Shown: positions 7,517 to 28,762, counted from the first letter of the stretch. The stretch: DNA of 40,000 bases from Desulfobulbaceae bacterium (GCA_963678525.2 CAXXDG010000002.1:890960-930959), one strand, 5' to 3'. Notes: a model not told the origin generated them from the letters alone. Numbers and translations: made by a program.

Positions 7517-7596
7517 TGAAATTACACATAAAAAGCGTCAACAAACCGCTCATCAAAAATTCCGGACCCCGTTCGGCAACATAACAGGATACAATC

Positions 7597-10337: not shown

Positions 10338-10372
10338 AAAAAAACCCGCTAACCATTGCTGGTTGCGGGTTT
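10338..10372 (-). terminator. Intrinsic terminator hairpin (distal copy)
   Basis: Minus-strand RNA CCCGCAACCA-GCAA-UGGUUAGCGGG followed by U7. Confidence 0.7.
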
Positions 10373-10431
10373 AACGAATCAAGGTGGACAACCTTGGATT
10401 ATAAAATGGTGCGAAGGCGGGAACGGAATTC
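10338..10431. repeat. Distal att repeat (terminator hairpin copy plus degenerate tRNA-Leu 3' fragment)
   Basis: 31 bp are identical to 28668-28698. Imperfect homology then continues through GGACAACCTTGGAT to TGGTGCGAAGGCGGGAACGGAATTC (compare the tRNA 3' end TGGTGCCGAAGGCGAGAGTCGAACTC). Confidence 0.85.
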
Positions 10432-10492
10432 AAGGGAATATTTTTAGTAAAATTAGATAATTGCCAAGTATGAGTTTTTTGTGTTTTTTATC

Positions 10493-10516
10493 TGTACCCG
10501 CTTTTGTACCCGCTTT
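10493..10516. repeat. Tandem 12-bp repeat TGTACCCGCTTT x2 (candidate integrase arm-type sites)
   Basis: Two exact tandem copies just inside the distal att. The octamer TGTACCCG recurs at 28614-28621 and inverted at 28564-28571, just inside the int-proximal att. Confidence 0.5.
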
Positions 10517-10664
10517 GTGCAGATGTAGATGGTCGCTTGACAAATTTGCCGGTTTAAACTTGCCAGCTCGGTTAGTACGAGTTGTTTTTTGTATCGGCGC
10601 TTTGCTGGGTGGACAACAAAAGAATATAATCCTGCCCTTGCAAACAGGCTTGATATAATGCAAA

Positions 10665-11999
10665 CTACAATGGTTTCCATGGAACAACCTCTGCCTGGCT
10701 AGGCCCTCTTTGTTTCAACCTGTTGCCATAAGTGCCAGAATACTGACAAACAGCGAGAATACCTAATTCTAAAAACCATAGCCCTAGATTCCAGGCTTCG
10801 AAAGTTGCATTGTCTAGCTGGCCTCGCTTTTTGTGCTCTGGGTGAACAAGAGAATTTCTTGTTTCAGTCAAAGCATGAGGAGCGTCTATCCAGTTATGTT
10901 TCTTGGCCAAGGTCTGTAGCTCTTTCATTTCGTTCGGTATTTCTATAGGGATGTCCAGGGATGAGAACAAAAGACGAAATTTATCTGACGCCCAAAGATC
11001 TTTAAAGCCTTTTGCGGTTACAAGTTTTTTGCTTTTAACTGCAAATTCATATGATAACCTTTCTATGGCTGCTTGCGTGAGTATGATTCCAGCGTCAATC
11101 CCTCTTGATGAGTCATTGGCAATAAGATACCAATAAATAACCTCATGAAGCGCTTCTTTCCAGTCGTCATCACTCCACTTGTCCATAAACTTCGGGAAAA
11201 AAACGCTAAGCTGCTCACCTCGCCTTCTATCGAACCATGAAAAGGTCGTATATCCAGTATCTCTGGGAGAAGACCAGCTTTCCCAGACCTGATTATAATT
11301 TCCATCATGCCCAACAGCGCAGACAGGATCAATCCACCTACCGATAGCAAATGAAAGAAAAAATTTCAAAGTATTAATGAAACACTCTGCTTCCTCCCCG
11401 CTATATGTAATATCGTCATTCTTCTCAAAAGAACCGATATGGGTTAAGCGATAGCCTCCTTCTTCTTTAAGTGATTCCATTGCCTTTTTGGTAGATTTCA
11501 GGGAGCGTATTTCAACGCACCAGTCATGGTTTTTCAACTCTAAATGCTCAATGGGGTGGCAGGTGTTCCCTTCTTTTTCAGTTGAACGCCTAGTACCTGA
11601 AAAGGAGACAAAATTAAGCAAGTGGAATGTTGTTGAAGCTATTGATGTATCATTGTTACCTGTACCAATGATTGGCTCATAGTGAGGGCTCCACTTTATA
11701 TCAAACTTACCCGTTGTGGCATCCCCGCCGCAGCTCAACCTGGATCCTTCTATTGGTATGCCGTTCATAGTAAAAATGACGCCTTGTGTTTTTCCCAATT
11801 GTACCCTCGTGGCGTCAACGGCTGATACTCCTTCAAAGTGACCATGAAAAAGCAATTGGCTTCGGGGAATCAATTCTAAGAATGCTTCCCCGTTTCCTTG
11901 ATAAGTAGTTTCGTCAATGGAAAGACTTACTGTTGAGCTGTTTATCAGCACTTTTTTATTATCTGAAAAGAAATCGTATATAGGCTCTATATTAGTCAT
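10665..11999 (-). CDS. HEPN-motif protein (ApeA-like), putative abortive-infection RNase
   Basis: 444-aa ORF in an AT-rich block. The C-terminal helical region carries ETRNSLVHPEH, i.e. the HEPN RNxxxH (Rx4H) motif at 10842-10859. The large N-terminal beta-rich domain fits the ApeA architecture (N-terminal domain plus C-terminal HEPN). The family call is from the motif only. Confidence 0.6.
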   Translation of the reverse strand: MTNIEPIYDFFSDNKKVLINSSTVSLSIDETTYQGNGEAFLELIPRSQLLFHGHFEGVSAVDATRVQLGKTQGVIFTMNGIPIEGSRLSCGGDATTGKFDIKWSPHYEPIIGTGNNDTSIASTTFHLLNFVSFSGTRRSTEKEGNTCHPIEHLELKNHDWCVEIRSLKSTKKAMESLKEEGGYRLTHIGSFEKNDDITYSGEEAECFINTLKFFLSFAIGRWIDPVCAVGHDGNYNQVWESWSSPRDTGYTTFSWFDRRRGEQLSVFFPKFMDKWSDDDWKEALHEVIYWYLIANDSSRGIDAGIILTQAAIERLSYEFAVKSKKLVTAKGFKDLWASDKFRLLFSSLDIPIEIPNEMKELQTLAKKHNWIDAPHALTETRNSLVHPEHKKRGQLDNATFEAWNLGLWFLELGILAVCQYSGTYGNRLKQRGPSQAEVVPWKPL

Positions 12000-12272
12000 A
12001 TTGCATATCTGGTCGTAATTAAATGCTTAATCGCTTAAGCAGACCGTGGACGTATTTCATTATCGGTTTTCCCTCAGCTTCCTTTGTTGCTGGGCTCATC
12101 TTCATGGGCATAAAAGACCTGGCCGGAAAGTCGCCTCCGTCCAGGAGGTAACGTTTGCGACAATTTCACGCGCTTGTGTTCGTGCGCACGTTTGCCATGT
12201 GTATGCACAATAGTCTTGGGTATAACGACAAGGTACCCGGCGAGCTGCAGCGAGTCCGCGTTGACCGATTGG

Positions 12273-12761
12273 TTACGGCTTTTCATTTCCTGCTTTTCTG
12301 ACAAGATTCAATATGATTAGAGTAATTAATGAAAGCTGAACTATATTATTAATTGCTGACATTAACATTGAATTAAACAAAAGCGGAATGCATATATTCG
12401 CAAAGCCGAGAATAGAAAGTGCAAATGTGAGTATTAAATTAATTATTGCGAACCAGTATACAGACACAAGCAGATCTAAATATCCTTGCCTTCGATACTT
12501 TTGAAATGAATTGGTTCTAATCAGACTGAACAGGATAGTAATAATTGCGGCCAAAAAGCCTAGCATTGTAAAGCTGAAGGTAGCTATTACAATAGAAAGA
12601 TTTATTCTCTGAGCAAATAGACCCAGTGAGATATTCAGATAACCTGAGAGGTAATTACTGTATATTAGGTAGATAAGGGGTCCAGGAATTAACGTCAATA
12701 AAGCTATTAATATCTTCAGGTGTCGCTTCCGTGAATCTTTCATCATTTGAAAATTCCTCAA
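12273..12761 (-). CDS. RexB-like small membrane protein with four hydrophobic segments
   Basis: 162-aa ORF directly after, and overlapping, the RexA-like gene. It has four long hydrophobic segments. The N-terminus MRN... and the block TMLGFLAAIITILFSLIRTN...YRRQGY resemble lambda RexB as I recall it (TMIAILIAALTFLIGSRTRR...IREYGY). The start is uncertain, with a 90-107 nt overlap with the upstream gene. Confidence 0.6.
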   Translation of the reverse strand: MRNFQMMKDSRKRHLKILIALLTLIPGPLIYLIYSNYLSGYLNISLGLFAQRINLSIVIATFSFTMLGFLAAIITILFSLIRTNSFQKYRRQGYLDLLVSVYWFAIINLILTFALSILGFANICIPLLFNSMLMSAINNIVQLSLITLIILNLVRKAGNEKP

Positions 12762-13587
12762 CCTTTAGCTCTAGATGCATGTTGTTGTTTGTTTTATTTA
12801 CAATGTGTTCATATATAGCATTTTCTTCTCTTGTGTTAATAGTTTCTGAAATTGCTCCTTTGCCAACAAGGTATAAATCAGTTAAGTGATCCTGCAATTC
12901 GTCTTTTGCCTTAATTATTAGCTTTCCTAAACCATCATCTGGTATAGAATTTACAAATTTTTTAACTATTGGTTGAATATTTTTTCTTTTTTTGGGTTTA
13001 ATTACTATTTCGAATGATTCAACTTCACCAACATCATCAGCGTTTCCACCAACAAAATTGAGAATATCTGCAGCCATTGAATTTTCCTTTTCAATTTCAA
13101 TAGTCGTTCTTCCAAGAAATGGTAATTGCAGTACTTCTTCTTTAGACGCTTGATGCAAGAGAGCTTGTGCGATAAACCTATAGTGACCAAGGTCAACTTT
13201 ACGGAATATTTCATCAATAAGATGAACCAGAGCTGGTATTTTAGGAGCTAAAAATGTTGATGCAAAACCTAAGAAATTGTTTTGAATATATACATATGAT
13301 GCAAATCCTAGTTGCTCGCCTTGATCAAGAAGTTCATAGATTTCATTGACATTTAAATCATTGGTGTTGATTTTTTTAATGACTTCATTACTTCTTGTCA
13401 TCACGAATAGATAAATATCTTGTGCGGCAGGGAACAAATATATTTGTTCATTATTGTACTGAAATGAGTTTTTAAATGTTACTGAATCTAGATTGCAAAA
13501 TGTCCTTATCAATGCTCTTATGTCATACAAGTAAGACATATTATCTTCTGTTTTTTCAATGTGATAGCCGAAATAGTTCAATTTCAT
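12655..13587 (-). CDS. RexA-like protein (phage-exclusion sensor component)
   Basis: 310-aa ORF. Two blocks align with lambda RexA from memory. Block 1: KKINTNDLNVNEIYELLDQGEQLGFASYVYIQNNFLGFASTFLAPK vs QKINRSKASVEDIKNSLADDESLGFPSFLFVEGDTIGFARTVFGPT. Block 2: FLGRTTIEIEKE..DILNFVGG..ESFEIVIKPKKRKNI vs FIGRTTVKVEAK..DILKVLGA..DSLDIVIKPKFKRDI. Gene order matches rexA-rexB. Confidence 0.7.
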   Translation of the reverse strand: MKLNYFGYHIEKTEDNMSYLYDIRALIRTFCNLDSVTFKNSFQYNNEQIYLFPAAQDIYLFVMTRSNEVIKKINTNDLNVNEIYELLDQGEQLGFASYVYIQNNFLGFASTFLAPKIPALVHLIDEIFRKVDLGHYRFIAQALLHQASKEEVLQLPFLGRTTIEIEKENSMAADILNFVGGNADDVGEVESFEIVIKPKKRKNIQPIVKKFVNSIPDDGLGKLIIKAKDELQDHLTDLYLVGKGAISETINTREENAIYEHIVNKTNNNMHLELKVEEFSNDERFTEATPEDINSFIDVNSWTPYLPNIQ

Positions 13588-13608
13588 ACAATCCTCTTTG
13601 TTCCATAA

Positions 13609-14052
13609 CTAGGTCTTTTTCGAGTGATGATCTGGTGCCGATTCATACTGAGCGTTTACCGGCAAAAGGGTTGCGGCTTCTTTCAATTCACCGCTAATAA
13701 AATACCAGGGCATCGACGGTGACGGCGCTGTCCTGCAGGTATATTGCTTCCGGCGCTGCACCTGCAAGCGTTGCCCTTGCCAGGCTGTTTTCTTTTTCAA
13801 AAGATTTGCCATGGTTGCCGCAATGACCAACTTGTAGCGGAAATGACGCTGGTGCAGCCATTCCGCTACAAGTTGTGCACGTCTGCAATTGTTCCCCCAG
13901 GGTAAAATATCACCTGCCACAATGAGTATATCGCCTGGCGGCAAGTTGATTTTGGCATGCATTCCATTAAGAATTCTCCCAATTTTTATGCATAAAGAGA
14001 GGAAACTTGAAACAGATAAAAGTTTCATACCATGTTTCCATATAGTTGCCAT
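13609..14052 (-). pseudogene. Calcineurin-like metallophosphoesterase, frameshifted and 3'-truncated
   Basis: Frame A gives LPPGDILIVAGDI...YKLVIA. The expected GNHD block (GNHGKSFE...YLQDSAVTVDALVFY) is in another frame (track ORF 13694-13888), consistent with loss of 1 nt in the G run near 13818-13821. A premature stop follows, and the rest is missing or degenerate. Confidence 0.6.
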
Positions 14053-14181
14053 GCTGGTTTCCTTGTTTTATGTGAAAAACCAGGGGAAATTGACATAATT
14101 TCCAAAGTGTTTCCACGATGGTTTCCTTAAAATGGGTGAAAGTTTCCTGTTTCCTGTACTATAGGGAGGAAACCAGGAAAC
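14001..14181. promoter_or_regulatory. GGAAAC/GTTTCC iteron cluster 1
   Basis: GTTTCC at 14034, 14057, 14109, 14121, 14142 and 14149. GGAAAC at 14001, 14168 and 14176. The cluster lies between the prim-pol stop and the phosphoesterase pseudogene start. Confidence 0.6.
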
Positions 14182-14191
14182 TTTCGGTTTT

Positions 14192-16015
14192 TCATGCCTC
14201 AGCGCGGATCTGTTTTGCCAGTTTGGAGCAGTAGCCTTTACTGATTTCCAGCTCTTCGGCTATGTCCTTTTGGCTGTAGCCTTCATCGAGGAGTTTTCCC
14301 ACCTTATCCTGCAGGCTTTCCTCGATGGTGCGCAGCTGCCAGGTGAAACCGTCTTCCCCCGCTATCAGTCCGGCTTCGAATGGTTTTACGTCGTCCCCGT
14401 GCAGGCCTCGGTTTTTGCGGAAATGGACCTCGAACAGTGCGCCCTGGTCGGGTGTGTATGACTTTGGCCGCATGAGCTGGATAACCGTATCCAGTACATC
14501 TTCTTTTCTGGAGCTGCCTCGCTGCATGCCGCCTTTGCCGTCATGATGGACCAACAGCACCGATTTACCCATGGCCCGCATGCGGAGTGCCCATTCCTGT
14601 ACCGGTAACCAGGCGTCGGATTTATTTTCCGATGTGCTCCTGCAGACCGTGGAAATATTGTCCAGGATGATCAGGCTTATGTCCTCGGTGAGGATGGTAT
14701 CCACCTGGGCCTGGCCTTCAGGGCTGCCAAGGTCTGGAATGCTTCCCTGCTGCAGGCCAGGGGTAATGATCTGCAGGTTATCTGCCAGGCTCTTATCCAT
14801 GTTGGCCATGGTGCCAGCTATTCTTTCTTTAATGGTTACCGCCGGCATTTCTCCATCAATGAACAGCACGCCCCTGGGCTTATCCGCTTTCCAGTTGAGG
14901 AAACTGGATCCGGTTGCCACTGCGCAGCCGATCCCCAGGCTTATGTGGGTTTTGCCCACTCCCCGGTAAGCATGCAGCAGGCAAAGGCCCTGCTCTGGCA
15001 ACCAGGGGGAAAGCAGGTTATTCCGGGGCGGGAATTCCCGGGAAAGCAGGTTACCTGCTGTTATAACCACAGGTGAGGGCACCATTGGCCGGTTTTGTCC
15101 GGTTTCCATCCTGGTTTCTCCGGCCTGGCCGTAAAGGTTGCCGATGTTCGTTACAGTGTAACGGGGTGTCGGCTCCTGTTCAGGCGGAGCATTGTAAGAA
15201 AGCGCCTTTTTGATGGTTGCTTGCCCATAGGTCAATTGCCCGTGTCTTGTGTCCCATTTCTGCCGAAACAGGCAGGACGCCCGAAAAATGGCGTCCATTT
15301 GCTGTGGATCGTTGTTTGTCCAGAATGCCAGGATAGAACAAAGGGCAAGGTCGGCCTCGCTCTGGCTGGCGTAGCCGTTCATGTTGCCCTGCATGAGGTT
15401 TGCAAACAGCTGGGCCTGTTTGCTTGCCCGGATCCGCTCTACGGTTGCCATGCCTGCCTTGTCCAGGTTGTTGAGTGTAGCAGTCATTGCCGCCCGGGAA
15501 AAGACCTGGTCGATTTGCTGCTGGCAGTAGTTGACCTGGTCTACATGGGTTAGCCTGTGGCCGGTAATGGTGAGATACCAGGCGTGGTCATAGATTTCTA
15601 TATTCTTTTGCTTCAGGTTTCTGGGGATCTTCCCGGCTGCTATAATCCGCAAGCCTTCACCGCTGGGGCTGATCTCGGTATAGGTTTGCAGCTTGTGGAC
15701 AATCTCCATTGCTTCTTTGCTTGCGCCTCGGCTGCCTACGCAGTGGTCCAGATCTATAAAGACAAAGGGATCCTGTGCGGTGGTACAATAGCCGATACCG
15801 TCATAGCCGCCTTCCTCATAGGCGGCCATGACTTCGGAAAAATCAGCCCAATGGCTGGGGTTTGTTTTGTCGGCGGTTTTGCCGTTGATCCGGAACGGCG
15901 GCTTTGTCCAGCGGGAGCCCTGGAGCTGGTAGCACCACAGCACCCATTGTGGAAATGACTTGAGCTGTTCAGGAATGCCGGCTGCAACAATGTGTAAAGG
16001 GTTAGGCTTGGTCAT
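14192..16015 (-). CDS. Bifunctional prim-pol / RecA-like (AAA_25-type) replication ATPase with C-terminal HTH
   Basis: N-terminal prim-pol features (FPQWVLW, FVFIDLDHC DxD motif). Middle QSEADLALCSILAFWTNNDPQQMDAIFRAS is a primase C-terminal type helix bundle. Walker A YRGVGKTH and Walker B VLFIDGE are present. C-terminal SQKDIAEELEISKGYCSKLAK is an HTH. GGGGAGGA RBS. Confidence 0.8.
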   Translation of the reverse strand: MTKPNPLHIVAAGIPEQLKSFPQWVLWCYQLQGSRWTKPPFRINGKTADKTNPSHWADFSEVMAAYEEGGYDGIGYCTTAQDPFVFIDLDHCVGSRGASKEAMEIVHKLQTYTEISPSGEGLRIIAAGKIPRNLKQKNIEIYDHAWYLTITGHRLTHVDQVNYCQQQIDQVFSRAAMTATLNNLDKAGMATVERIRASKQAQLFANLMQGNMNGYASQSEADLALCSILAFWTNNDPQQMDAIFRASCLFRQKWDTRHGQLTYGQATIKKALSYNAPPEQEPTPRYTVTNIGNLYGQAGETRMETGQNRPMVPSPVVITAGNLLSREFPPRNNLLSPWLPEQGLCLLHAYRGVGKTHISLGIGCAVATGSSFLNWKADKPRGVLFIDGEMPAVTIKERIAGTMANMDKSLADNLQIITPGLQQGSIPDLGSPEGQAQVDTILTEDISLIILDNISTVCRSTSENKSDAWLPVQEWALRMRAMGKSVLLVHHDGKGGMQRGSSRKEDVLDTVIQLMRPKSYTPDQGALFEVHFRKNRGLHGDDVKPFEAGLIAGEDGFTWQLRTIEESLQDKVGKLLDEGYSQKDIAEELEISKGYCSKLAKQIRAEA

Positions 16016-16233
16016 GGCAGGTCCTCCCCTTGATTGGTCTTGTAAGCCTGGTAAGCTTCATATGCCTTTCTGAAGTCGCCCATGGTCATACCAGGGGTAA
16101 CCAGGTTGCTGTCCAGAAATGCCTGGTAATTGGCATTAGTGACGGTATTGGTTGGTTTGATCTTGGCGTATGCTTCTGCAGATGGCTTCACTGCTTCCAC
16201 TACCCTGATTGTCAGTTGTTTTTCTTTGCTCAT
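16012..16233 (-). CDS. Hypothetical small protein (73 aa)
   Basis: GGGAGGG RBS. ATGA start/stop overlaps with both neighbours indicate translational coupling. Confidence 0.6.
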   Translation of the reverse strand: MSKEKQLTIRVVEAVKPSAEAYAKIKPTNTVTNANYQAFLDSNLVTPGMTMGDFRKAYEAYQAYKTNQGEDLP

Positions 16234-16547
16234 CTTTCAAACCCTCCCATATCGCGTGCCGTCTCTTGGATTCTGAGAGATAACAACCTGCAGGCTGCGG
16301 TTATCTGGTAAATGCCGGCGGAAAAGGATTCTCCGTCTGCAGGCAGTTCTCTGGCCGGGCCTGTGGCATGCTCTACCACCTGGAGAACGTTGCTCAATGT
16401 TTCTGCCATTAAAGAAAGCTCGTAAGCGTCCTTTGGCTGCCTTTCTGCGGCGATCATGGCCACCAGGCCGTCTGTTTCGCTGTTGTTCCAGTCTGGATCG
16501 ACATTGTACAGGAGCTGGTGGTTTGATGAGGTTATCTGTGCTTTCAT
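16230..16547 (-). CDS. Hypothetical protein (~105 aa)
   Basis: ATG at 16547 lies 7 nt after GGAGG (the track start at 16553 is a GTG). It is coupled to flanking genes. No recognisable family. Confidence 0.6.
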   Translation of the reverse strand: MKAQITSSNHQLLYNVDPDWNNSETDGLVAMIAAERQPKDAYELSLMAETLSNVLQVVEHATGPARELPADGESFSAGIYQITAACRLLSLRIQETARDMGGFER

Positions 16548-16549
16548 TC

Positions 16550-16972
16550 TCACACCTCCTGCTGTTGGTTGATTTCAACGGCAATAACAGTGCCGCTGGG
16601 TACGACAATGGCCTTGTGGTTGGCAATAACCGCATAGATTTCCGTGTTTGTTTCGAGCAGGTGAAAGAATACCTGGGAAACACGATCATTCAGGCAGCCG
16701 ATAAGCACCTGGCCTATCTTGCCCCTGGCTCCCAGGGGGTGGCCATATTGGCCGTTATCGCGCACCATTTGCAGAAACAACTCTTCAAGGGGGGAAACAA
16801 GCTCTTCTCTGAGGTAGGTATCCAGGTCCACGAATTCAACCTGGTCGCTGGTCAAGGTTTTGCCTTTGACCTGCCAGGTTTGCCTGTGTGGCGCTGGCTG
16901 CTGGGGTTGTAAATGGGAAGAGGTACGGTTTTTCTGATTACTGCGGGCGGGGAAAATGGGTGTTGTAGCCAT
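16550..16972 (-). CDS. Hypothetical protein (140 aa), first gene of the prim-pol operon
   Basis: ATG at 16972 lies 8 nt after GGAGG. The track ORF extends to 17053 but has no RBS. No recognisable family. Confidence 0.6.
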   Translation of the reverse strand: MATTPIFPARSNQKNRTSSHLQPQQPAPHRQTWQVKGKTLTSDQVEFVDLDTYLREELVSPLEELFLQMVRDNGQYGHPLGARGKIGQVLIGCLNDRVSQVFFHLLETNTEIYAVIANHKAIVVPSGTVIAVEINQQQEV

Positions 16973-17350
16973 GTGTGCTACCTCCAAATAAAAAATGCCA
17001 CGAGTGCTCTCAAGCCTAGTACGGCTCCCGGGGCCTCGCGGGATCCCGGACACTCATGGCAAATTGTATTTGAACTATCAGCAGACCTGGTTTTGGGTGC
17101 CGGTCTGATGCACCGTACTAGTTTGAGAGGTCTGCAGATTATCAGCAGGAAAAGAAATCGTCAAGCCTGGGGTTGCTGCTACCGGGTGTGAGCGGTCGTT
17201 TTTGTTACCACAGAAAGAGGGGAGATGGGTTGCTTTTCGGCTGGATAACAGGCCTGCTGGATAGTGGGGAGCACTGTAACTGCATGACCACAAGAGGTGG
17301 GTGGGGATACTCTCTGTGGTGAGCAGTTGTTCTTCTTTAGTGAATACACA

Positions 17351-17451
17351 GGAAACAGGAAACTTTTTATCTATCTTATTGTTGTTCTATTTAAAAAGTG
17401 GTTTCCTGGGCAGGAAACTTGCTGGAAACCGTGAGGAAACAAGGTGGAAAC
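17351..17451. promoter_or_regulatory. GGAAAC iteron cluster 2 with 11-bp phasing
   Basis: GGAAAC at 17351, 17358, 17413, 17424, 17435 and 17446; the last four are exactly 11 bp apart. One inverted GTTTCC at 17401. The cluster lies in the divergent region between the prim-pol operon and the IHF/HU gene. Confidence 0.65.
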
Positions 17452-17597
17452 CTGTACCTATCCGGCATAAAAGAAGAAAAACAGGTTTGGTCGATTTGAC
17501 TTTTCAAGATACACGTGCCATAAGATGTGTTTCGGAACCACTATGTGGTAGTTGAATGTAAAAATTTTTTCCTCAAAATTATAATCAAAGAGACATA

Positions 17598-17891
17598 ATG
17601 AAACTGACAAAAGCCCGCATGGCTGATGAGATTGCCAAGGTGCATGATATGGCTTCCATAAGGGAAGCGAGTGAATATGTTGAAGCCTTCCTTACTGTTA
17701 TTAAACAGGAGATGGTAGCCGGTAACGACATATTGATTTCAGGATTCGGAAAGTTCACGGTCAGGGATAAGCGGCAACGGCGCGGCAGGAATCCACAGAC
17801 CGGTGATGATTTACTGCTTGACCCGAGAAGGGTTGTCACCTTCAACCCGTCCGGCAAGCTGAGGATGAAAGTTAACGGGAAGCTGAATTGA
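17598..17891 (+). CDS. IHF/HU family DNA-bending protein (IHF-alpha-like), island-encoded
   Basis: 97 aa. GFGKFTVRDKRQRRGRNPQTGDDLLLDPRRVVTFNPSGKLRMKV matches the beta-arm signature of IHF/HU. Confidence 0.88.
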   Translation: MKLTKARMADEIAKVHDMASIREASEYVEAFLTVIKQEMVAGNDILISGFGKFTVRDKRQRRGRNPQTGDDLLLDPRRVVTFNPSGKLRMKVNGKLN

Positions 17892-17908
17892 CAGTTGGTG
17901 GAATTACT

Positions 17909-17951
17909 CCGGCATGTATGCGGGGCTTTTGTTCTGGAGCATACATGCCGG
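17909..17951. terminator. Bidirectional hairpin between convergent IHF/HU and tape-measure genes
   Basis: Perfect 13-bp stem CCGGCATGTATGC / GCATACATGCCGG with a 17-nt loop. No strong T tract. Confidence 0.5.
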
Positions 17952-17972
17952 TAAGAATGTGTGTAAGTGTTC

Positions 17973-20639: not shown

Positions 20640-20738
20640 GGTTTTTCCTTGGTTGTGGGGGCAGTTCTCTACACCAGGCTACATGCTGACGCCTGGTGTA
20701 TGTTGGTGGTCAGGTTGTTGGTGCAGGTGTATTGGCTG

Positions 20739-21017: not shown

Positions 21018-21262
21018 ATATCTGCCACTGCCTCCGCAAGTTTCTGCACCTCTGAAGGGTAGGCGGCGTTCATCTGATCAATGGTGACCCCGCTTGATTG
21101 GGTGACAATACTCATAGGGAGATATCCGTCGATGAGTTCGTCCAGAAAATCAAGCTCGGTATCGTCTCCGATCTGGCTGAAAAATTCCCGTACCTCTTTC
21201 ACAGTGAGCTCGTTCACCGTGATCTTCTCGCCCCATAAATCAATTTGTTTGGATAAAAACAT
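20951..21262 (-). CDS. Phage tail assembly chaperone (gpG-like)
   Basis: 103-aa acidic ORF immediately upstream of the tape measure gene. This is the canonical position and size, and an overlapping -1 frame is present. Confidence 0.65.
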   Translation of the reverse strand: MFLSKQIDLWGEKITVNELTVKEVREFFSQIGDDTELDFLDELIDGYLPMSIVTQSSGVTIDQMNAAYPSEVQKLAEAVADINPHLASTIKKRVEAYQSILQK

Positions 21263-21312
21263 GGTTGTACCTCATGTATGAATGGTTGTTTTTGGTGTGG
21301 TGTCTGTTGTAT

Positions 21313-21786
21313 TCACCGCGTTGTTACGTGTAGCAATGCGCGTATGAGTTTTGTTATTGCGGTGAATTCATCAACTATATGCTCATCTGGTATCTGTGGA
21401 GGATGCTCGTACCATTTTTCAATAGCTTCAATTGTGCCGTCAGGACGACCGTCTGCATCTGCTCTTTCTTTGCATGTTCGCTCTCCTGGGTCGATGATTG
21501 TGAATTTTGCACCAGCGCTTATATAGTCATCAATAAACGTTTTAGACGGATTTGTATGGATGATCCATGCATTACTACCAATTCCACTTTTGATTGTGTT
21601 AATTGCTGTATATCGGCATTGAAGCGCAATCGTCCTAATGCTGCCGTCTGCGCCGTGTGATTCTCTCGCTCCTAATGCAAAAGCGATCTTGTCGAAATCA
21701 ACCAGGACCTCGCCGTCATTCGAGTTTGCTTCAATGTAAGTTGATTTCCCAGCGCACGGCGGTCCAACGATAATGTTAATGTCCAT
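21313..21786 (-). CDS. P-loop NTPase / kinase-like protein
   Basis: 157 aa. Walker A IIVGPPCAGKST at the N-terminus. Size and layout resemble small AAA_33/polynucleotide-kinase-like phage proteins. Confidence 0.65.
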   Translation of the reverse strand: MDINIIVGPPCAGKSTYIEANSNDGEVLVDFDKIAFALGARESHGADGSIRTIALQCRYTAINTIKSGIGSNAWIIHTNPSKTFIDDYISAGAKFTIIDPGERTCKERADADGRPDGTIEAIEKWYEHPPQIPDEHIVDEFTAITKLIRALLHVTTR

Positions 21787-21843
21787 AAATTGTCCTATTA
21801 ATAAGTTGATTGGCCTTATCAGGGAGTGGATGAGTGCAGCTGT

Positions 21844-22173
21844 TCATGGCGGCCTGGCTGCCTGTGGATGCCAGAAAAACTTACGGGCGCGATAAGTTTC
21901 AATGGGGGGTGTTTGTTGGCTGCTGCTGTCTTGTGTGCCTGGTGATGTTCTTTGCCCTTGCTGTCCTTGTCCCCGCTCCCCTTGGATCCGAAACAATGGG
22001 GTGGTAAAGATGATTGACTGCATCACAGACCGCGCCGAGCCCTGTCGTTTTCGGGCGACCATGGCAGACCCAGGGGGCCATGAAATCTCTACGACCCTTA
22101 GGCGTATAACCGGTCTGCAGAATAACGTACGCGCCGGCAAAATTGGAGATGGGGGTGTTAAATACGTACTCAT
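21844..22173 (-). pseudogene. Unassigned coding-like region, possibly a frameshifted gene remnant
   Basis: The only ATG-initiated ORF (109 aa) is low-complexity. A second minus frame without a start codon reads more protein-like (EYVFNTPISNFAGAYVILQTGYTPKGRRDFMAPWVCHGRPKTTGLGAVCDAVNHLYHPIVSDPRG). Confidence 0.25.
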
Positions 22174-22199
22174 AACTACTTGATATTATAGTTAATTAT

Positions 22200-22808
22200 T
22201 CAAAAAGGAAAAGCAGTCTGCTTTACTGTTTTTCCGTTATTCTGGAAGGAAAAAATAATCTCTCCCCTGGATCCCAGAGAGAAGGTCGCTCCCTCTCTGA
22301 TCCAAACCGATAGCCAAGCCACGCCCCATTTCCCATAGGGCCACTTGAACTTTCCTCTCCTGACCAGGGCGGCCATGGTCCAGCCTGCAGACAGAAGTTG
22401 AGCCTTATTTTCTTTGATCCATGGCCAGGCCACTGCAAATGCTTGCTGCTGCAGCTCCCCGGCACGGTCCATGGGCTTTGGTCCTGGGATCTGATCGTCA
22501 CCGGCTGCTGCTTTGGTGGTTATCCGCTCAGGCTTGTTCTTGCCGGTGGCTTCCACGAGGTGTCCTTCGATTCCTGGCTGGCAGGTTTTGCAGTAAAAAC
22601 CGCCTGCATTGCCATGCACAAAGGATGTTCCCTGGCAGATCGGGCAGGGGAAAAGAAAGGAAAGTCGTTCTGGTTTCCGTTTCTGTCTCGGCTTTTTTGG
22701 TAGTTTTGCCTGTTTGGGGACATACTTTTTCCTGGTTTGCGCTGGATCCGGCGTGTTTTTCTGCCCTGGTGAGGGCGAAATTTGCTCGAGTTGATCAAAA
22801 AGGCTCAT
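22200..22808 (-). CDS. Zinc-ribbon protein, function unknown
   Basis: 202 aa. Basic N-terminus, then CPICQG...CKTCQPG (4-Cys ribbon) and a Trp-rich C-terminal domain. It is the first gene downstream of the origin region. Confidence 0.65.
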   Translation of the reverse strand: MSLFDQLEQISPSPGQKNTPDPAQTRKKYVPKQAKLPKKPRQKRKPERLSFLFPCPICQGTSFVHGNAGGFYCKTCQPGIEGHLVEATGKNKPERITTKAAAGDDQIPGPKPMDRAGELQQQAFAVAWPWIKENKAQLLSAGWTMAALVRRGKFKWPYGKWGVAWLSVWIREGATFSLGSRGEIIFSFQNNGKTVKQTAFPF

Positions 22809-22877
22809 AACTCGTATGAATTTCTCTGCTGTTTTTGCTCATTTTGAAGGTCGAAATTGCTCAAAACCTGGCGTTTA

Positions 22878-23215
22878 GCTGTCACCAGGAGGTGGAAAAT
22901 AGCGGTTTTGCTGTCACCAATTGCCATTCAGCTGTCACCAAATTGAAGTGAAAATTTTAAGCGCGACCTACTTAATACTATATAACTATATAATATTATT
23001 ATATATGTTATATACAGAGGTTGCTATCTGGTGACAGTGGTTACAGTGGTGACACCTGTTTTTTACGCGCGTGAGAGTTGTTCTCTTTTTTCAGTAAACT
23101 CTTTTTCTATTAAGGGGAAAATGCTGTCACCACTGTAACCACTGTCACCAGTGACCTAATTACAACGAGTTAACACTGTCACCACGATTTTTTTTCAGTG
23201 TAACCACTGTCACCA
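22878..23215. promoter_or_regulatory. Replication origin candidate: 9-bp iterons CTGT(C/A)ACCA flanking an AT-rich unwinding element
   Basis: There are 12 copies. Direct copies start at 22879, 22911 and 22932. Inverted tandem TGGTGACAG/TGGTTACAG/TGGTGACAC spans 23029-23055. Direct tandem copies span 23124-23150, with further copies at 23176, 23198 (GTGTAACCA) and 23207. Nearly pure A/T sequence lies at 22971-23016. Confidence 0.7.
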
Positions 23216-25842
23216 GGATCTGGCTCGGTTGCTTCATCGGGAGTGCCTAGGTTGTTTTGGTGCCACTTAAGGTCGAAAACCCATACTCTTCTTTGTTTGG
23301 GTCTCCCTGATTTGTCAGTTTCTGGGTCATCGGGGAAACGGTAGGCATAGCTGTTTTTGACGTATGATGGATGAGCTTGCAGGGCCTTGGCGAGTTGCTC
23401 GTTTACCTGAAAGTTCAGTCCTTTGTTCTTTAAGAGGTTCTCAACTCTGGGTAGATTGACGAGTATTCTGTTTTTTTCAGAGTCAAGATGATAGGCAGTA
23501 GCCGCCTTATCGTCCGGGAGAGTGTCCAGCAGCTCGAAAAAATAATCTGCGGTGGTTGTTTGTCGGATAGCTGAGGTAATGCATTTCTGGCGGCAGATAT
23601 CTCTGAAGTAATCAGTAACCGCCTGGTCCTGCTTGATAGAATACAGGCTACAAAAAAGGCGGTGAAATGCCAGAATGAGTGCATGGTTATCCAGTATCCT
23701 TCTTTCTGGCATGGGGGATAGGTCTGTTCTGGCTTTTTTCCATTCTTCGGTCCAGTTTGACTCAAAGTGCTTGCGATTCATCAATACATTTTGAATGAGT
23801 CCGGCCAGGATTGGCTTGTCCATGTTCGTTAGCTTTTCGTAAGCTACCCGGGAATTGTCGGTTAGGTCTTCGGCTTTAAAATGAAGGGAAATTACGCGCT
23901 GGCGCTCGGCTTTTGAATTGAACGGCTCGGTATTTTGACAAAATAGAAGCGCCCCAAGAAAGGGGTTTTCCTTGGTTTGTAAGTCGGCGCTGAATGTTGC
24001 CTGCACTTGCAATGGGCCTCGATTATAGGCCGTCAAAATGATGCTATAGTCAAACCCTCGCTCGTTACGCTCGTTATCCTCAAGCAGGGCGGTAAACAGT
24101 CCACTGAGTTGGCCAATGGTTCGTATGCTTCCTTTTTTAGAATTGAGCTGGGTAACAGGCAGGCCTTCACCGTCTCGCCCCTGGATGGCGTTCAGTAGCG
24201 TTACTAAAGCGCTTTTCCCTGATGCTGGATCCCCGTGTAAGCTGAGAAAAGGGAAAAAATTGCACTCTGCCTTTATTTGATTCACGAAAAAACTTGAAAG
24301 TACCAAGGAAAAGGCAGAAATCCCGTTCAGGCCCCATGCGTCATGCAGCAGAGTATATATTTCTTTGACCTGAGATTTGTTGATTGTTGCAGGGGAAATG
24401 GCCTTGCCGGCGCCATGAACCGGCGGCCGGTAAGATTGGTTGTAGGCTATTCGAAAGTGTCCCCGTTTGTCTGGCAGGAAAAGCTTGCCTTCTGGACCCA
24501 CGCCCCAGTCGTGGAAGATATAACTGTCGTTTTCAGGCTGATATCCGATAACCTGGGCCTGGCATACCTCAGGTGCTGACTGGTCACTGGTGATCTTGGT
24601 TTGAAATGCAGTGGCCGCCCTTGGGTTGCCTTCCCAGTTTATTTTAGCCCGAGAAAGAAAAAACTCGTTTATGGATCGTGAGTTGACCAGGTTGGTCCCC
24701 GTGGCGGTAACCTCGATCTGCTTTCCTTTTGGTGGTTGTACAATGAGGTTGTAAAGATATTCTGGCTGTGCTGGGTTGGCTTTGTTGATCAGGTAACTGT
24801 TCACCCGAACTGTGGCTCTCAAGCAGCGCTCTACATCAAGAAATGGCGTGTCGTTGCCTTTCTGTTTCTTTAATGCGCTGTAATAGGTTGAGCCTTGAAA
24901 ATTGAACAGTCCTGGGGCTCGATGATAAAATTCGTTATAAATTTCCGCCCACTCAGTGGAGGTCTTGGCCAAGGCCAATTCTCCATTGTGTTTAAAACGG
25001 GGAAGGGAACGCTGAAAGTATTTTCTGGCGTCCTCCAGTGAGCTGGAAGAAGCCAGGAGGTCGTTCCAGTCTTTACCTGGATCACACAAATAGACTTCTG
25101 CTTCTGGATAAACTGCCGACCATTTGGCACAAGCACGATGGCCGGCAGGATCATTATCAAAAGCAAGCACCTTATTTTTAAATTCTGACAAGTCTACCTT
25201 GTGCGGATCCTGGCCGCTTGATATCACAGCAATGGCTTGGTAACCAAGCTCTATTAGGGATATAGCGTCGATAATCCCTTCTACGGCCCATACTTTTTTT
25301 TCTGGATCATAGGTAAAGCCTGGGTGGCGGTAGAAAATTGATTTCGGGCTATTAATATTGTGTGTTTTCCCCTCACCTGGTGGTGGGGAAAACAGTCTCC
25401 CATTTAGGATCTCTTTGCCCTTGCTATCCTTGCCTATAGGAAACATGACAGCGCCGGATCCTGTGTTTCTCACATTCTTGAGATAACGAAAATCAAGGCC
25501 ATCAAGTGTCTTGTTGATTCCCCTGGACTTAAGGTATTCCCGGGCAGGCTTGTGGGGATCGTTTTTCGTGGCCGGAAAGTCCTTTTCGACGTTCCCTTTC
25601 AGTTCAGGAAAAAGCTCAAGTGTTTTCGTGCTGGTGCCACAGTTCGAAAGCCTGTTACAGTTAATCGCCATGGGGCTTTGTTGGTACGCCCATGCGCTCT
25701 TGTCCCCACATGCTGGACAGGTGAGTCCTTGGATGCTATTTCCGTTACACCTGGTATGCCTGTTCCAATAGGGTGACTGTTTGAGGCGATCGAGGATTTT
25801 GTTGGTTAGGCCTTGCAACGCTTTACCTCCAGGTTGTTTCAT
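23179..25842 (-). CDS. Zn-finger / Toprim primase fused to P-loop helicase (P4 alpha / PICI Pri-Rep analogue)
   Basis: 887 aa. N-terminal CPACGDKSAWAYQQ...NCNRLSNCG zinc finger. Toprim block VWAVEGIIDAISL...VLAFDNDPAGHRA. Walker A LHGDPASGKSAL. The C-terminal domain abuts the iterons. Confidence 0.85.
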   Translation of the reverse strand: MKQPGGKALQGLTNKILDRLKQSPYWNRHTRCNGNSIQGLTCPACGDKSAWAYQQSPMAINCNRLSNCGTSTKTLELFPELKGNVEKDFPATKNDPHKPAREYLKSRGINKTLDGLDFRYLKNVRNTGSGAVMFPIGKDSKGKEILNGRLFSPPPGEGKTHNINSPKSIFYRHPGFTYDPEKKVWAVEGIIDAISLIELGYQAIAVISSGQDPHKVDLSEFKNKVLAFDNDPAGHRACAKWSAVYPEAEVYLCDPGKDWNDLLASSSSLEDARKYFQRSLPRFKHNGELALAKTSTEWAEIYNEFYHRAPGLFNFQGSTYYSALKKQKGNDTPFLDVERCLRATVRVNSYLINKANPAQPEYLYNLIVQPPKGKQIEVTATGTNLVNSRSINEFFLSRAKINWEGNPRAATAFQTKITSDQSAPEVCQAQVIGYQPENDSYIFHDWGVGPEGKLFLPDKRGHFRIAYNQSYRPPVHGAGKAISPATINKSQVKEIYTLLHDAWGLNGISAFSLVLSSFFVNQIKAECNFFPFLSLHGDPASGKSALVTLLNAIQGRDGEGLPVTQLNSKKGSIRTIGQLSGLFTALLEDNERNERGFDYSIILTAYNRGPLQVQATFSADLQTKENPFLGALLFCQNTEPFNSKAERQRVISLHFKAEDLTDNSRVAYEKLTNMDKPILAGLIQNVLMNRKHFESNWTEEWKKARTDLSPMPERRILDNHALILAFHRLFCSLYSIKQDQAVTDYFRDICRQKCITSAIRQTTTADYFFELLDTLPDDKAATAYHLDSEKNRILVNLPRVENLLKNKGLNFQVNEQLAKALQAHPSYVKNSYAYRFPDDPETDKSGRPKQRRVWVFDLKWHQNNLGTPDEATEPDPGDSGYTEKKSW

Positions 25843-26120
25843 GCGACTTTGTGCCGATAAACACGATAGCTTTCGTTTTTTGCCGTTAGGTCTATTTCTT
25901 TATCTTCTTTATAGATGAGTTTTACGCGGAGGGTATTGTCGGGTGTTTCTTTGATCAAAATGCATTCAAGACCTTCTTGATCGCCATGGATTTTCTGTGC
26001 CCTTTTATAGCCACGTGGTGTGAAAATATCGGCTTTGCCTTCACGATAACGAGAAATAAAGGCTTCCTTGGTATTGTGAAACAGCAGGGCGTCTACCTCT
26101 TCGTATTTGTCCTTTTTCAT
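25839..26120 (-). CDS. Hypothetical small protein (93 aa)
   Basis: ATG at 26120 lies 17 nt after the alpA stop; the longer track start would overlap alpA. Its stop overlaps the primase start (ATGA). Confidence 0.55.
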   Translation of the reverse strand: MKKDKYEEVDALLFHNTKEAFISRYREGKADIFTPRGYKRAQKIHGDQEGLECILIKETPDNTLRVKLIYKEDKEIDLTAKNESYRVYRHKVA

Positions 26121-26137
26121 ATTTATGCCTTTATTGA

Positions 26138-26392
26138 TCAGTTTGCTTTTGGCAGGTTGTCTATCCAAGTCATGACTTCGCTTAATCTCCATACCCGGCT
26201 TTTTGGCCCTGAGAGGTATCCTGGCGGGAACGTTCCGTCTTTTATCATGCTATAAATGCTTGATTTTTTACGTGAAAGAATGGCTTCCAGCTGCGTCATG
26301 TTTATTAGACGTTCCTCAATACCGGGAAGAATTGCGGCTTTTTGTGAGTTTTCGAGTGTCTGTTTGATTAATGCGGTTGCGGTTTCGCTCAT
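26138..26392 (-). CDS. alpA: AlpA-family (MerR-like HTH_17) excisionase/transcriptional regulator
   Basis: MTQLEAILSRKKSSIYSMIKDGTFPPGYLSGPKSRVWRLSEVMTWI matches the AlpA/Xis HTH pattern. ATG at 26392 lies 8 nt after GGAGGG (the track start is a TTG). Confidence 0.8.
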   Translation of the reverse strand: MSETATALIKQTLENSQKAAILPGIEERLINMTQLEAILSRKKSSIYSMIKDGTFPPGYLSGPKSRVWRLSEVMTWIDNLPKAN

Positions 26393-26615
26393 ATATTTTC
26401 CCTCCAAGAAAGGTTATGGTGATCTGTTTGGATGACGAAAAAATAATGAGCAAACTGGTGTTGCCGCCAGTTTTACCAATATCTGGATGTGTAATTTATA
26501 ATCTATGGAAGTGACTGTTTGTGAAAACAGTAGGTTATGGCAGGTGAAAAACTAAAAAGCGCAGGTGAATTGATAATAGTTGTAATTTTAAATAGTTATT
26601 ATTAATTCAGCATTC

Positions 26616-27284
26616 TCATTGGTTACGAAAATATCGGATTACTTCTGTGATGTAGCTGGAAAAAGGCTTCGCCCCATTTTCACCTATACTGGGGCCAATG
26701 ATTGTTACTAACTTTTGCAGTGTGCCGCGTTCCCCACCTGTTGGTTGGTGATCATGGTTAATACAACATGTGCATAACCTGAACACGAAATGGCGGACAT
26801 GGAATTTCTTGCCGCCGTCACGGACGTTTCCCTTTTTCCCTGAAGGTGACTCTACTTGTTCGGTTGCTTTTTCAATTCGTAGTAAATCTAGGCCCAATTT
26901 TTTGGGATCAAGATCTGTATTAGGATGATTCAGATCGATATGGTCGTAAGTGTCCAGCAACAATAACGATAATTGATTTCTGACCCACTCTTCCTCAAGA
27001 ATAAAGCTCATTTTCTTAGCAAGCTCATGGAGCTCTACAAGGCTTTCATTTATTTTTCTTTGACATGGTTTGTTTTCGAATTGTTTTACATGCGTCAGGT
27101 ATACATGACAGGCTTTCTCAATACATGAAACGGATTCTGGATTAATGAGCTTTGCAATCTGTTTTTTCTGCTCAGCAGTTAATGTCCCCTTATGAGCTTC
27201 CGATTCCTCGTAGTCTATCTCTTTGATATGTTGTTGGCTTTCCTGGGAAGGTTGTCCGTGGTCGTGCCATCCACCTTTTTTCAT
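26616..27284 (-). CDS. Hypothetical protein (222 aa) between int and alpA
   Basis: Clean ORF in an AT-rich stretch with no recognisable motif. Its C-terminal half is rich in His and Cys (CTCCINHDH). Confidence 0.55.
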   Translation of the reverse strand: MKKGGWHDHGQPSQESQQHIKEIDYEESEAHKGTLTAEQKKQIAKLINPESVSCIEKACHVYLTHVKQFENKPCQRKINESLVELHELAKKMSFILEEEWVRNQLSLLLLDTYDHIDLNHPNTDLDPKKLGLDLLRIEKATEQVESPSGKKGNVRDGGKKFHVRHFVFRLCTCCINHDHQPTGGERGTLQKLVTIIGPSIGENGAKPFSSYITEVIRYFRNQ

Positions 27285-27306
27285 AATTTGCCCTTATAAA
27301 GAGAAC

Positions 27307-28545
27307 TCACTTGTTTGCTTGCTGCCCAATTGGAATTATCTCTGCACCATATTCAAGTTGTTGCAGTAGATCCGCCCACCACTGCATGAGCTCACGGCGC
27401 TGTTCCATGTATTCGCTTCGATGATAAGCTGCCCGGATCTTATTTCTTTCTTCATGGGCGAGTGCTTTTTCAATTACATCACCATTAAATCCTGATTCAT
27501 TGGCAATAGTGCTGAAGGTGGCTCTAAAGCCATGCACAGTCGCTTTAGAATGATATCCGAGGCGGTATAATCCATACAGCATTGTATTTGCGGATAACTG
27601 TTTACTGCCCTGTCTGATTCCTGGAAAAATAATTCCCTGCCCTCCGTAAAGCACTTTGAGCCTTTGAAGGATGGCTAATGCCTGCTTTGAAAGAGGAACA
27701 TTGTGCTGGCTGGACATCTTCATTCTTTCTGCAGGGACTCTCCAGATATTATTTTCCCAGTCTATTTCGTTCCAGGTTGCCCCCCTGACTTCATCTGTCC
27801 TTGCAGCGGTGAGTATCAGAAATTGGAGTGCAAGTTTTGTATTGATATGGATATCGCCGGCAGAAATATCCTTTAGCATTTGGGGCAAGTCTTCCCGACT
27901 GATAGCGGCATGGTGTACTCGTTTTTTTGGTTTCAGAACACCCTGCATGTCTGCAGCTGGATTATACGTTGCGCGGCCAGTTTGGATGGCATACCGAAAA
28001 ACAGAGCTCATTCTCTGTAATACTTTTCGTGCTATTTCTAATGCGCCCCGTGATTCTATGCTTCTGATTATTTCGAGTATTTGTGGTGGTGATATATTAT
28101 CAATGGGAAGATGGCCTATACTGGGAAAGGCATCGTGTTGAAGTGTTGCCAGGACGTGGTCACTATGGCTTTTTGACCAGCGTTCTCGCTGAAGAGTCAC
28201 CCACTCCTGGGCCAGTGATTCAAAAGAGTCTCTCTTGCTTTGATTTTTCGCACGTTCTTCTTCAATAACAATCTGCTTCTCTTCACGTCGTTTGCTTGCC
28301 GGGTTCTTTCCAGCTTTGACAAGCTCCCTGGCCTCCTGTCTTGCTTTCCTGGCATCCTCTAAACTAATTTTCGGGTACGACCCGATCACGTACGTTGATT
28401 CTGTACCCGCTATTTTGTAACGGTAGCGCCAGGTTTTCTTTCCAGACTTGGCAACGTGAAAATATAAGCCATGGCCATCACTTAGCTTGTATGGCCTTTC
28501 TTTTGTCTGAGCGTTGCGGACTTGAAGAGCGGTGAGTTTACCCAT
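27307..28545 (-). CDS. int: Tyrosine recombinase, P4-type integrase with DUF4102-like arm-binding N-terminus
   Basis: N-terminus GKLTALQVRNAQTKERPYKLSDGHGLYFHV...KTWRYRY. Catalytic residues are visible in LTAARTDEVRG, HGFRATF and LAHEERNKIRAAYHRSEY. ATG at 28545 lies 7 nt after GGAGGGG. Confidence 0.92.
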   Translation of the reverse strand: MGKLTALQVRNAQTKERPYKLSDGHGLYFHVAKSGKKTWRYRYKIAGTESTYVIGSYPKISLEDARKARQEARELVKAGKNPASKRREEKQIVIEEERAKNQSKRDSFESLAQEWVTLQRERWSKSHSDHVLATLQHDAFPSIGHLPIDNISPPQILEIIRSIESRGALEIARKVLQRMSSVFRYAIQTGRATYNPAADMQGVLKPKKRVHHAAISREDLPQMLKDISAGDIHINTKLALQFLILTAARTDEVRGATWNEIDWENNIWRVPAERMKMSSQHNVPLSKQALAILQRLKVLYGGQGIIFPGIRQGSKQLSANTMLYGLYRLGYHSKATVHGFRATFSTIANESGFNGDVIEKALAHEERNKIRAAYHRSEYMEQRRELMQWWADLLQQLEYGAEIIPIGQQANK

Positions 28546-28667
28546 GTTTCCCCTCCATGAAATCGGGTACAAAATATAAGGGTATTCGTGTGCGAAATGC
28601 TTATACCCACATCTGTACCCGATTATTTCATGGATTTCAATGGAAGAAAATGGAGTGTGATGGAAAC

Positions 28668-28700
28668 AAAAAACCCGCTAACCATTGCTGGTTGCGGGAT
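28668..28700 (-). terminator. Intrinsic terminator of tRNA-Leu / secG operon
   Basis: Same hairpin as at 10345-10369, followed by U6 on the minus strand, 35 nt after the tRNA CCA end. Confidence 0.75.
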
Positions 28701-28762
28701 TTAAGTACCAAGATGGACAACCTTGGATATATAATTGGTGCCGAAGGCGAGAGTCGAACTCG
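28668..28762. repeat. tRNA-proximal att repeat
   Basis: Counterpart of 10338-10431. It spans the tRNA terminator hairpin, the 35-nt spacer and the last ~26 nt of tRNA-Leu. Confidence 0.85.

Follow-up and report, generated by a model that had tools for sequence, protein, structure and literature searches.

Behind the tRNA-Leu(GAG) gene of a Desulfobulbaceae bacterium lies an integrative island of 18.3 kb whose ends share a perfect repeat that covers a terminator hairpin and not the tRNA gene, and the locus raises the question of where the strand exchange that inserted the island took place and why two such hairpins bracket it. The window, that is, the whole stretch of 40,000 nt that was analyzed, is numbered 1-based, and island-side features lie mostly on its minus strand. 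A repeat search of the window returned a two-copy direct repeat of 74 nt (10339-10412 and 28668-28741) with 85% identity, the copies being 18,329 bp apart. As the original prediction had described, 10339-10369 and 28668-28698 are identical (31/31), comprising A6 and a 25-nt hairpin that on the tRNA strand is folded by RNAfold into a GC-rich stem followed by U6, and past this block the alignment keeps about three quarters identity across a spacer and into a tRNA-like piece at 10407-10431. Within this piece, 10407-10421 is equivalent to the last 16 nt of the tRNA with one G gone, 3 bp ahead of the discriminator, and a mismatch at one other position; altogether, the tRNA-like 26 nt have suffered five changes and the deletion, and the neighboring 31 nt are unchanged. 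Equally in line with that prediction, the integrase open reading frame (ORF; 27307-28572) adjoins the intact tRNA gene, and the repeats bracket an 18.3-kb element that contains it. The reading favored here, at a probability of roughly 0.6, is that a P4-type island would have inserted canonically at GCACCA, the six bases that end the tRNA gene, beside a relic spacer-plus-hairpin unit.

This reading is built on comparison with related loci. The tRNA gene was called by ARAGORN, and repeat and ORF searches, Pfam and PHROG profiles, RNAfold and BLAST/tBLASTn were employed. Integrase orthologues were taken as matches at E ≤ 1e-60, present in 116 of the 301 genomes of the host order Desulfobulbales; the orthologous loci compared were 12, then 17 more, plus 80 named loci. 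In what follows, G-numbers stand for the genomes of relatives and L-numbers for loci, and seven congeners were part of the comparison; the genus also includes Desulfogranum marinum and D. mediterraneum. To find far ends, each island was scanned with the terminal 16 nt of the tRNA behind which it lies, both in full and minus one G. No conspecific genome or empty site appeared among 40 relatives searched with the tRNA region, nor in the genus when the left-flank genes were used, and the exchange point proposed here was derived by comparing junctions.

Around 40 orthologous integrases (49-77% amino acid (aa) identity) lie behind tRNA-Leu genes of every isoacceptor or behind tRNA-Phe, the integrase gene (int) being placed 180-250 nt behind tRNA-Leu (CAA, UAA, GAG, CAG) or tRNA-Phe. 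This siting holds for 12 orthologues (59-69% aa), for 15 of 17 further ones and for nearly all named-genome loci down to ~49% for which upstream sequence exists. All target tRNAs of the family end in GGCACCA, and relatives at ≤43% integrase identity use other tRNAs. It has thus been shown that the integrase belongs to a Desulfobulbales-wide family sited behind tRNA genes that end in GGCACCA. At L088-L090, L110 and in G238, integrase orthologues of 50-57% identity are found behind a tRNA-Phe(GAA) that ends in GGCACCA and is followed by a spacer-hairpin unit. Every tRNA-proximal junction of the family has the same anatomy: behind the tRNA comes a ~37-nt spacer, in which a small inverted repeat flanks a TCC(A/G)T-like motif, and then follow a GC-rich hairpin and its T-run, TCC(A/G)T repeats, GGGTA repeats, and int. 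In the window, the four TCC(A/G)T copies in 10-bp phase are as would be expected of arm-type integrase sites.

The same comparison bears on the origin of the hairpin, which the original prediction had taken for the terminator of the host tRNA. In pairs of close elements the spacer and hairpin are 91-100% conserved despite different tRNAs (L099/L101 at CAA and L102 at GAG; L078 at CAG and L080 at GAG), and therefore the module as a rule moves with the island. Half of 30 secG-tRNA-Leu(GAG) loci match a model of this module over nearly its full length (L023 only marginally, with a plain terminator by eye), and the other 15 present a plain terminator ~10 nt after the tRNA or a contig end. An integrase or integrase remnant is located within 1.5 kb in four of these loci, all four belonging to the 15 that bear the module. 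The idea of a host terminator is contradicted by the travelling of the module and by the plain terminator of module-free sites. Because the module follows the tRNA wherever the integrase family sits, behind five tRNA species, the hairpin is best regarded as island-derived DNA turned tRNA terminator instead of the native one.

The far ends of the islands indicate where the exchange would fall. A tRNA end lacking one G was detected at 11 far ends from 10 islands and four tRNA species, which are all the far ends found. In six of them, from five islands (G088, G030, G007b, G139 twice, and G282), a plain terminator comes directly after the G-less fragment; in the other five (G037b, this window, G301, G010, and G222) a second spacer-plus-hairpin unit follows, and the hairpins of the two ends are clearly different in G301 and G010 and differ at one base in G222. 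An intact end with the full GG was found once, in G265, inside a perfect 57-bp repeat that runs from the anticodon loop to CCA. This repeat was considered as the family mode and dropped once G-less fragments appeared in ten islands; together with a 54-bp repeat of G088, it probably belongs to other elements at the same tRNA. A crossover in the T-loop was ruled out, because the two ends have unlike loop sequences. In G192, a P arm, G-less end, unit and int occur with no tRNA in the 5.8 kb upstream, an arrangement resembling either attP or a tandem junction.

Conservative recombination would neither add nor remove bases. GG is present at the junction on the tRNA side and a single G at the far one, and a working target tRNA would have GG. 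Since attB must have GG, attP has a single G; and since the G-run stays with its left neighbor in both products, the strands must have been exchanged on its right side. No identity common to both junctions exists after CCA at virgin sites, so that GCACCA remains as the exchange segment. From this comparison we infer that the family crossover falls within these last six bases of the tRNA gene. A hairpin crossover does not survive as the family rule, given that the six virgin-site far ends lack the family hairpin and that the hairpins of G301 and G010 differ between ends. In contrast, the proposal that the degenerate tRNA-like piece is island-borne attP-arm sequence stands, for another reason than the one first given (a crossover outside the tRNA): the one-G deletion is present in all 11 far ends and, because recombination loses no bases, the deletion must already have been in attP, and 10407-10421 is best taken to have come with the island.

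The recurrent deletion also bears on the default picture for tRNA islands in the Islander report (Hudson et al. 2015, PMC4383910), according to which the exchange would have occurred in the tRNA body and the far-end copy would be the displaced tRNA end with its native terminator, later mutated. The fragment is indeed rightly placed and oriented for this. Nevertheless, an identical loss of a single G recurs in 11 of 11 far ends, in 10 independent islands and four tRNA species, the supposed decay would have been far from uniform (31 nt unchanged next to 26 nt with five changes and a deletion), and the far-end terminator is the family module and not a plain native terminator. Displacement followed by decay is thus highly improbable.

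The attP that emerges from these comparisons would consist of a P arm with GGGTA repeats, a copy of ~15 nt of the tRNA 3' end minus one G, GCACCA, the spacer, the hairpin, the phased arm sites and int. Its spacer would carry an integrase-type motif, the hairpin would act as an intrinsic terminator, and four phased TCC(A/G)T sites would follow. Integration would leave the tRNA intact and supply it with the spacer and terminator of the island, and the far end would receive the G-less fragment and then whatever previously stood behind the tRNA.

As attP has one unit and the junctions of the present island have two, the target already had one, wherever the exchange fell. In the favored reading, the spacer-plus-hairpin unit of an earlier related island would have been standing behind the tRNA before the insertion, canonical insertion at GCACCA beside this relic would have produced the two units that now bracket the island, and the two hairpins would be identical since the hairpin is almost invariant in the units of the genus, not through strand exchange there. 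Relic units without a working integrase are found at tRNA-Leu(GAG) in G001, G004 and G007, and at two more sites in the genome of the host itself. At one of these (C3:2555375-2555450), a tRNA-Phe(GAA) is followed within 110 nt downstream by a spacer, hairpin and TCCAT unit, and tBLASTn found no family integrase near this tRNA. The other (C3:1623590-1626002; L033, ~10590-13003) is what remains of a near-identical island: the 3' half of tRNA-Leu(UAA), a spacer-plus-hairpin unit, the P' arm, a frameshifted stretch of integrase codons 1-104 (89% aa identity) and, from the 444-aa gene, codons 1-46. The intact tRNA-Leu(UAA), at C3:1578955-1579042, is 44.6 kb away, and the relic was therefore displaced by a later, different element. 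The hairpin of the window is identical in G001 and has one mismatch in G007; with a hairpin so nearly invariant in the genus, the identity of the two copies is unsurprising. Moreover, the differing unit hairpins of G301 and G010 imply that a perfect hairpin block is not required.

Several observations weigh against a canonical insertion beside a relic. The far-end unit (R-type spacer and hairpin) is 97% identical (62/64) to the tRNA-proximal unit of the related G001 element, which by the family rule carries this R-type unit as its own, whereas here the R-type stands at the far end; the simplest reading is that the R-type spacer is the island's own and that the exchange fell to the right of the spacer. 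The tRNA-proximal, L-type spacer shows the kind of similarity (~72%) to the G007 and G004 units of this tRNA that a resident sequence would have. The nearest relative of the island, the C3 relic next to the tRNA-Leu(UAA) half, is ~93% identical from the 3' half of the hairpin through int and ~50-60% in the spacer, a breakpoint which implies at least one exchange at the hairpin in this lineage. To the left of 10339, nothing can be recognized of the body of the supposed earlier island. Finally, the ~9 nt on the left side of the deletion always agree with the isoacceptor present at the locus, which an island-borne origin of the piece leaves unexplained. A comparable breakpoint separates L081 and L080, both of Candidatus Electronema, which share the hairpin (97%) and the P' arm (91%) and have unrelated spacers (58%). 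To judge from such breakpoints, exchanges at the spacer/hairpin boundary do happen in this integrase family.

These data lend some weight to the explanation first put forward for the locus, in which the exchange would have taken place in the 31-bp hairpin block, by homologous recombination or by the integrase acting at a secondary site. The tRNA and L-type spacer would then be resident, and the G-less piece and R-type spacer would be the attP arm of the island. In agreement with this, the unit matching the far end here stands beside the P' arm of the G001 element, and the resident unit at the far end of G001 is a different one; an R-like spacer also occurs in another G001 element of the clade, the one at tRNA-Leu(CAG); the L-type spacer diverges from the same-locus G007 and G004 units about as much as the genomes do; the breakpoints of the C3 relic and of the L081/L080 pair fall exactly at the spacer/hairpin boundary; and the attP rebuilt in this way is colinear with the rebuilt G001 attP along its whole length. 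The far end of the G001 island, which is on another contig, displays the P-arm motif seen here, a tRNA-like piece minus three bases, the different unit, and then an orthologue of 2457-4511. Nevertheless, the exchange in the rest of the family maps to GCACCA, which is present in both junctions here; six virgin-site far ends do without the family hairpin and two further islands have unlike hairpins at their ends; a perfect block is expected without any exchange when the hairpin is near-invariant in the genus; and the spacer of the closest relative, the C3 relic, is of neither type. In addition, integrase-mediated insertion should greatly outcompete RecA acting on 31-37 bp of identity, which weighs against a hairpin exchange. 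On balance, an exchange in the hairpin is considered less likely for this island than one in GCACCA. The broader proposal, in which the conserved hairpin would be a second recombination point where islands sometimes enter or leave relic units and swap spacers wholly outside the tRNA gene, the window being such a case, is likewise only tentative.

Insertion at GCACCA beside a relic unit is therefore retained as the preferred account. Among the related loci found, no integrase is closer than 77% aa, so the island's own spacer cannot be read from a near-identical copy, and two metagenome scans gave no matches to the exact P-arm and P'-arm words of the island. Fifty-one viral-contig matches to the G-less 15-mer were treated as chance, none of them having a match to the unit model; two carry a 40%-identical integrase, too distant to belong to the family.

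Regarding its gene content, ~10413-28735 is an 18.3-kb P4-type integrative island, ordinary in kind, in which every large ORF between the repeats is on the minus strand. Three of the features considered by Islander are found in it: an intact tRNA, an integrase inside, and a same-orientation tRNA fragment with a one-base deletion at the far end. The integrase matches PF13356 (2.5e-25), PF22022 (1.6e-34) and PF00589 (1.8e-22), scores 3.4e-85 with NF007246, under the curated cut-off of that model, and shows the catalytic R, HxxR, H and Y in ARTDEVR, HGFRAT, AHEE and AAYHR, as located by eye in the translation without structural alignment. The listed ORF begins with TTG at 28572 and homologues align from residue 9-13; translation probably begins at the ATG at 28545, which is preceded by a GGAGGGG site, giving a protein of 412 aa. 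"P4-type" refers here to this set of integrase domains, and the naming is not a claim of membership among P4 satellites. The only domain found in the 887-aa protein is Toprim, in a test for alpha-type primase-helicases, and its homologues (45-62% aa) are found at the corresponding place in the islands of G010, G301, G206, G222, G269 and G139. The 607-aa primase-helicase has a 62% aa homologue in G010 and a C-terminal relic in G001.

The presence of two different primase modules within one island might suggest that the 18.3 kb are a chance composite of two unrelated elements, or that the repeats have nothing to do with mobility. However, the 17.4-kb G010 island at tRNA-Leu(UAA) has the same P-arm motif and far-end structure and keeps int and the homologues of the Toprim primase, o202, o167, o107 and the 607-aa primase-helicase in the order of the window; because of this conserved order, the two-primase backbone is, on comparative grounds, a conserved design and not a chance composite. 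The 74-nt repeat is also far beyond chance: a degenerate hairpin pattern (≤3 mismatches) has only two matches in the window, against 0.03 expected. Either version of this accident is, of all the explanations weighed, the least probable. Across the whole 5.57-Mb genome the pattern scan revealed one additional true hairpin copy; seven other listed matches were taken as chance, all having the maximum of 3 mismatches and none being beside a tRNA or integrase. Genes for capsid-size control or helper exploitation (sid, psu, delta) had no Pfam or PHROG match in the island. The TerS-like ORF adjoins the tape measure gene without capsid, portal or large terminase, and the combination of TerS-like ORF and tape measure hints at a satellite-type hijacking of a helper phage.

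The surroundings of the island are asymmetric. Housekeeping genes had been noted at both repeats, but they are present in the right flank only, where gap, pgk, tpiA and secG lie upstream of the tRNA; the left flank holds accessory genes. None of the seven congeners has the 304-aa gene or this GlgA, the DNA of 4512-10148 has no match in five of the seven, and 4512-10338 has no counterpart at the locus of G001, the closest relative, in which the far end of the island is followed directly by an orthologue of the 684-aa molybdopterin oxidoreductase gene. G013, which belongs to another genus of the family, has a GlgA 87% identical to this one, and the GH57-GlgA-487aa-304aa block, which the seven congeners lack, was probably acquired horizontally. 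The repeat at 10149-10312 gives 164 BLAST matches in its own genome and more than 40 copies of 75-82% identity in G001, resembling a miniature inverted-repeat transposable element (MITE) or a repetitive extragenic palindromic (REP) sequence. As far as these alignments tell, the variable region behind tRNA-Leu(GAG) is the whole of 4512-28735. The empty site that had been predicted, with the tRNA and its terminator followed directly by the 304-aa gene, is thus contradicted, as this gene is found in 0 of 7 congeners and the G001 far end adjoins the 684-aa gene orthologue. Six congeners have a match at tRNA-Leu(GAG) (G001 and G003-G007): four with other relics, G003 with a plain terminator and G005 unclear. 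In G002 the only match lacks secG.

Table 1. Positions of the island, its attachment-site elements and its flanking genes in the 40,000-nt window
Feature	Position	Strand	Basis or remark
Intact tRNA-Leu(GAG)	28736-28821	-	ARAGORN; sole tRNA of the window; downstream of secG
Inferred family crossover segment, last 6 nt of tRNA (GCACCA on minus strand)	28736-28741	-	Family comparison
tRNA-proximal spacer, L-type	28699-28735	-	Small inverted repeat around GTCCAT motif
Terminator hairpin and U-run, right copy of 31-bp identical block	28668-28698	-	Repeat search, RNAfold
P' arm	28546-28667	-	Arm motifs, then ribosome-binding site
P' arm, four TCC(A/G)T motifs	28630-28664	-	Phase exactly 10 bp
P' arm, two direct GGGTA motifs	28604-28620	-	
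P' arm, two inverted GGGTA copies	28565-28584	-	
P4-type tyrosine integrase	27307-28545	-	Arm-DNA-bind_3, Phage_int_M, Phage_integrase
AlpA-family small DNA-binding protein	26138-26407	-	Candidate excision or regulatory factor
887-aa Toprim primase-like protein	23179-25842	-	
TerS-like 157-aa ORF	21313-21786	-	PHROG terminase small subunit, 3.5e-27
103-aa ORF	20951-21262	-	PHROG of unknown function
888-aa tape measure protein	17973-20639	-	
607-aa primase-polymerase/helicase	14192-16015	-	NrS-1 HBD and AAA_25
RexA	12655-13587	-	In AT-rich distal cargo 10665-13587
162-aa ORF	12273-12761	-	Overlaps RexA
444-aa cargo protein	10665-11999	-	No family matches
Island P arm	10422-10520	-	Motifs common to G010 and G001 P arms
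P arm, two GGGTA motifs	10495-10511	-	12 bp apart, ~85 nt from tRNA-like end
tRNA gene (tDNA) fragment	10407-10421	-	Last 16 nt of tRNA-Leu(GAG) minus one G
Far-end spacer, R-type	10370-10406	-	
Left copy of 31-bp hairpin block	10339-10369	-	
Possible decayed P' arm, 26 nt	10313-10338		
Dispersed 164-bp repeat	10149-10312		
Accessory block: GH57 (397 aa), GlgA (490 aa), 487-aa and 304-aa proteins of unknown function	4666-10101	+	
684-aa molybdopterin oxidoreductase gene	2457-4511		Conserved

The satellite phage P4 and P4-like islands use the 3' end of leuX, a tRNA-Leu gene, as their integration site, with the integrase beside the attachment site. The island in the window shares with P4 the integrase domain architecture, a tRNA-Leu target ending in GGCACCA, int next to the tRNA, an AlpA-type regulator and a large Toprim primase. 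Unlike P4, it has no recognized capsid-size or regulatory genes, carries a tape measure gene, a TerS-like gene and a second primase-helicase, and resides in a member of the Desulfobulbales, with ~31% identity or less to gammaproteobacterial relatives.

The anatomy of its ends also has parallels. The Islander report (PMC4383910), citing Williams 2003 (J Bacteriol 185:1059), describes "damaged" tDNA fragments with a small deletion located 3 bp ahead of the discriminator, and the deletion in the window and in all 11 far ends is in exactly this place. That text speaks of damage to the displaced fragment, whereas the base counting performed here suggests that the deletion was carried by attP. An asymmetric sublocation within the tRNA 3' end has been reported for some tRNA-integrase subfamilies, with varied tRNAs used within a subfamily (Williams 2002, as relayed in bioRxiv 10.1101/2020.11.02.365908); the use of different tRNAs by one subfamily is common to both cases and, compared with what is relayed there, the exchange would here be narrowed to six bases common to all targets. 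The Islander report also counts 125 cases of tandem or accreted islands at one tRNA gene. In these, a new island lies between the tRNA and earlier remains, the old junction being pushed to the far end, as is proposed for the window, and a clear second tandem case exists in the host genome at tRNA-Leu(UAA). Compared with the tandems described there, only a spacer-plus-hairpin unit of ~70 nt is recognizable here of the supposed earlier island, without integrase or fragment of its own.

Taken together, this is a new island of an established type, and the anatomy of its attachment site matches features already present in the literature. Exchange within six bases common to all tRNA-Leu species and tRNA-Phe would explain the use of five tRNA species by an integrase family that occurs across the Desulfobulbales, cable bacteria included. 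About half of the examined secG-tRNA-Leu loci keep the spacer-hairpin unit, in many cases with neither an integrase gene nor a remnant of one in the nearest 1.5 kb and, because islands hand their spacer and terminator to the tRNA, part of the apparently native 3' flank of these tRNA genes is island-derived. The "damaged fragment" is better understood as a property of attP than as the outcome of damage and, as a warning for island-mapping software, the crossover need not coincide with the longest perfect repeat. If the hairpin is truly a second recombination point, an island may insert entirely outside the tRNA gene, with spacers swapped between island and chromosome.

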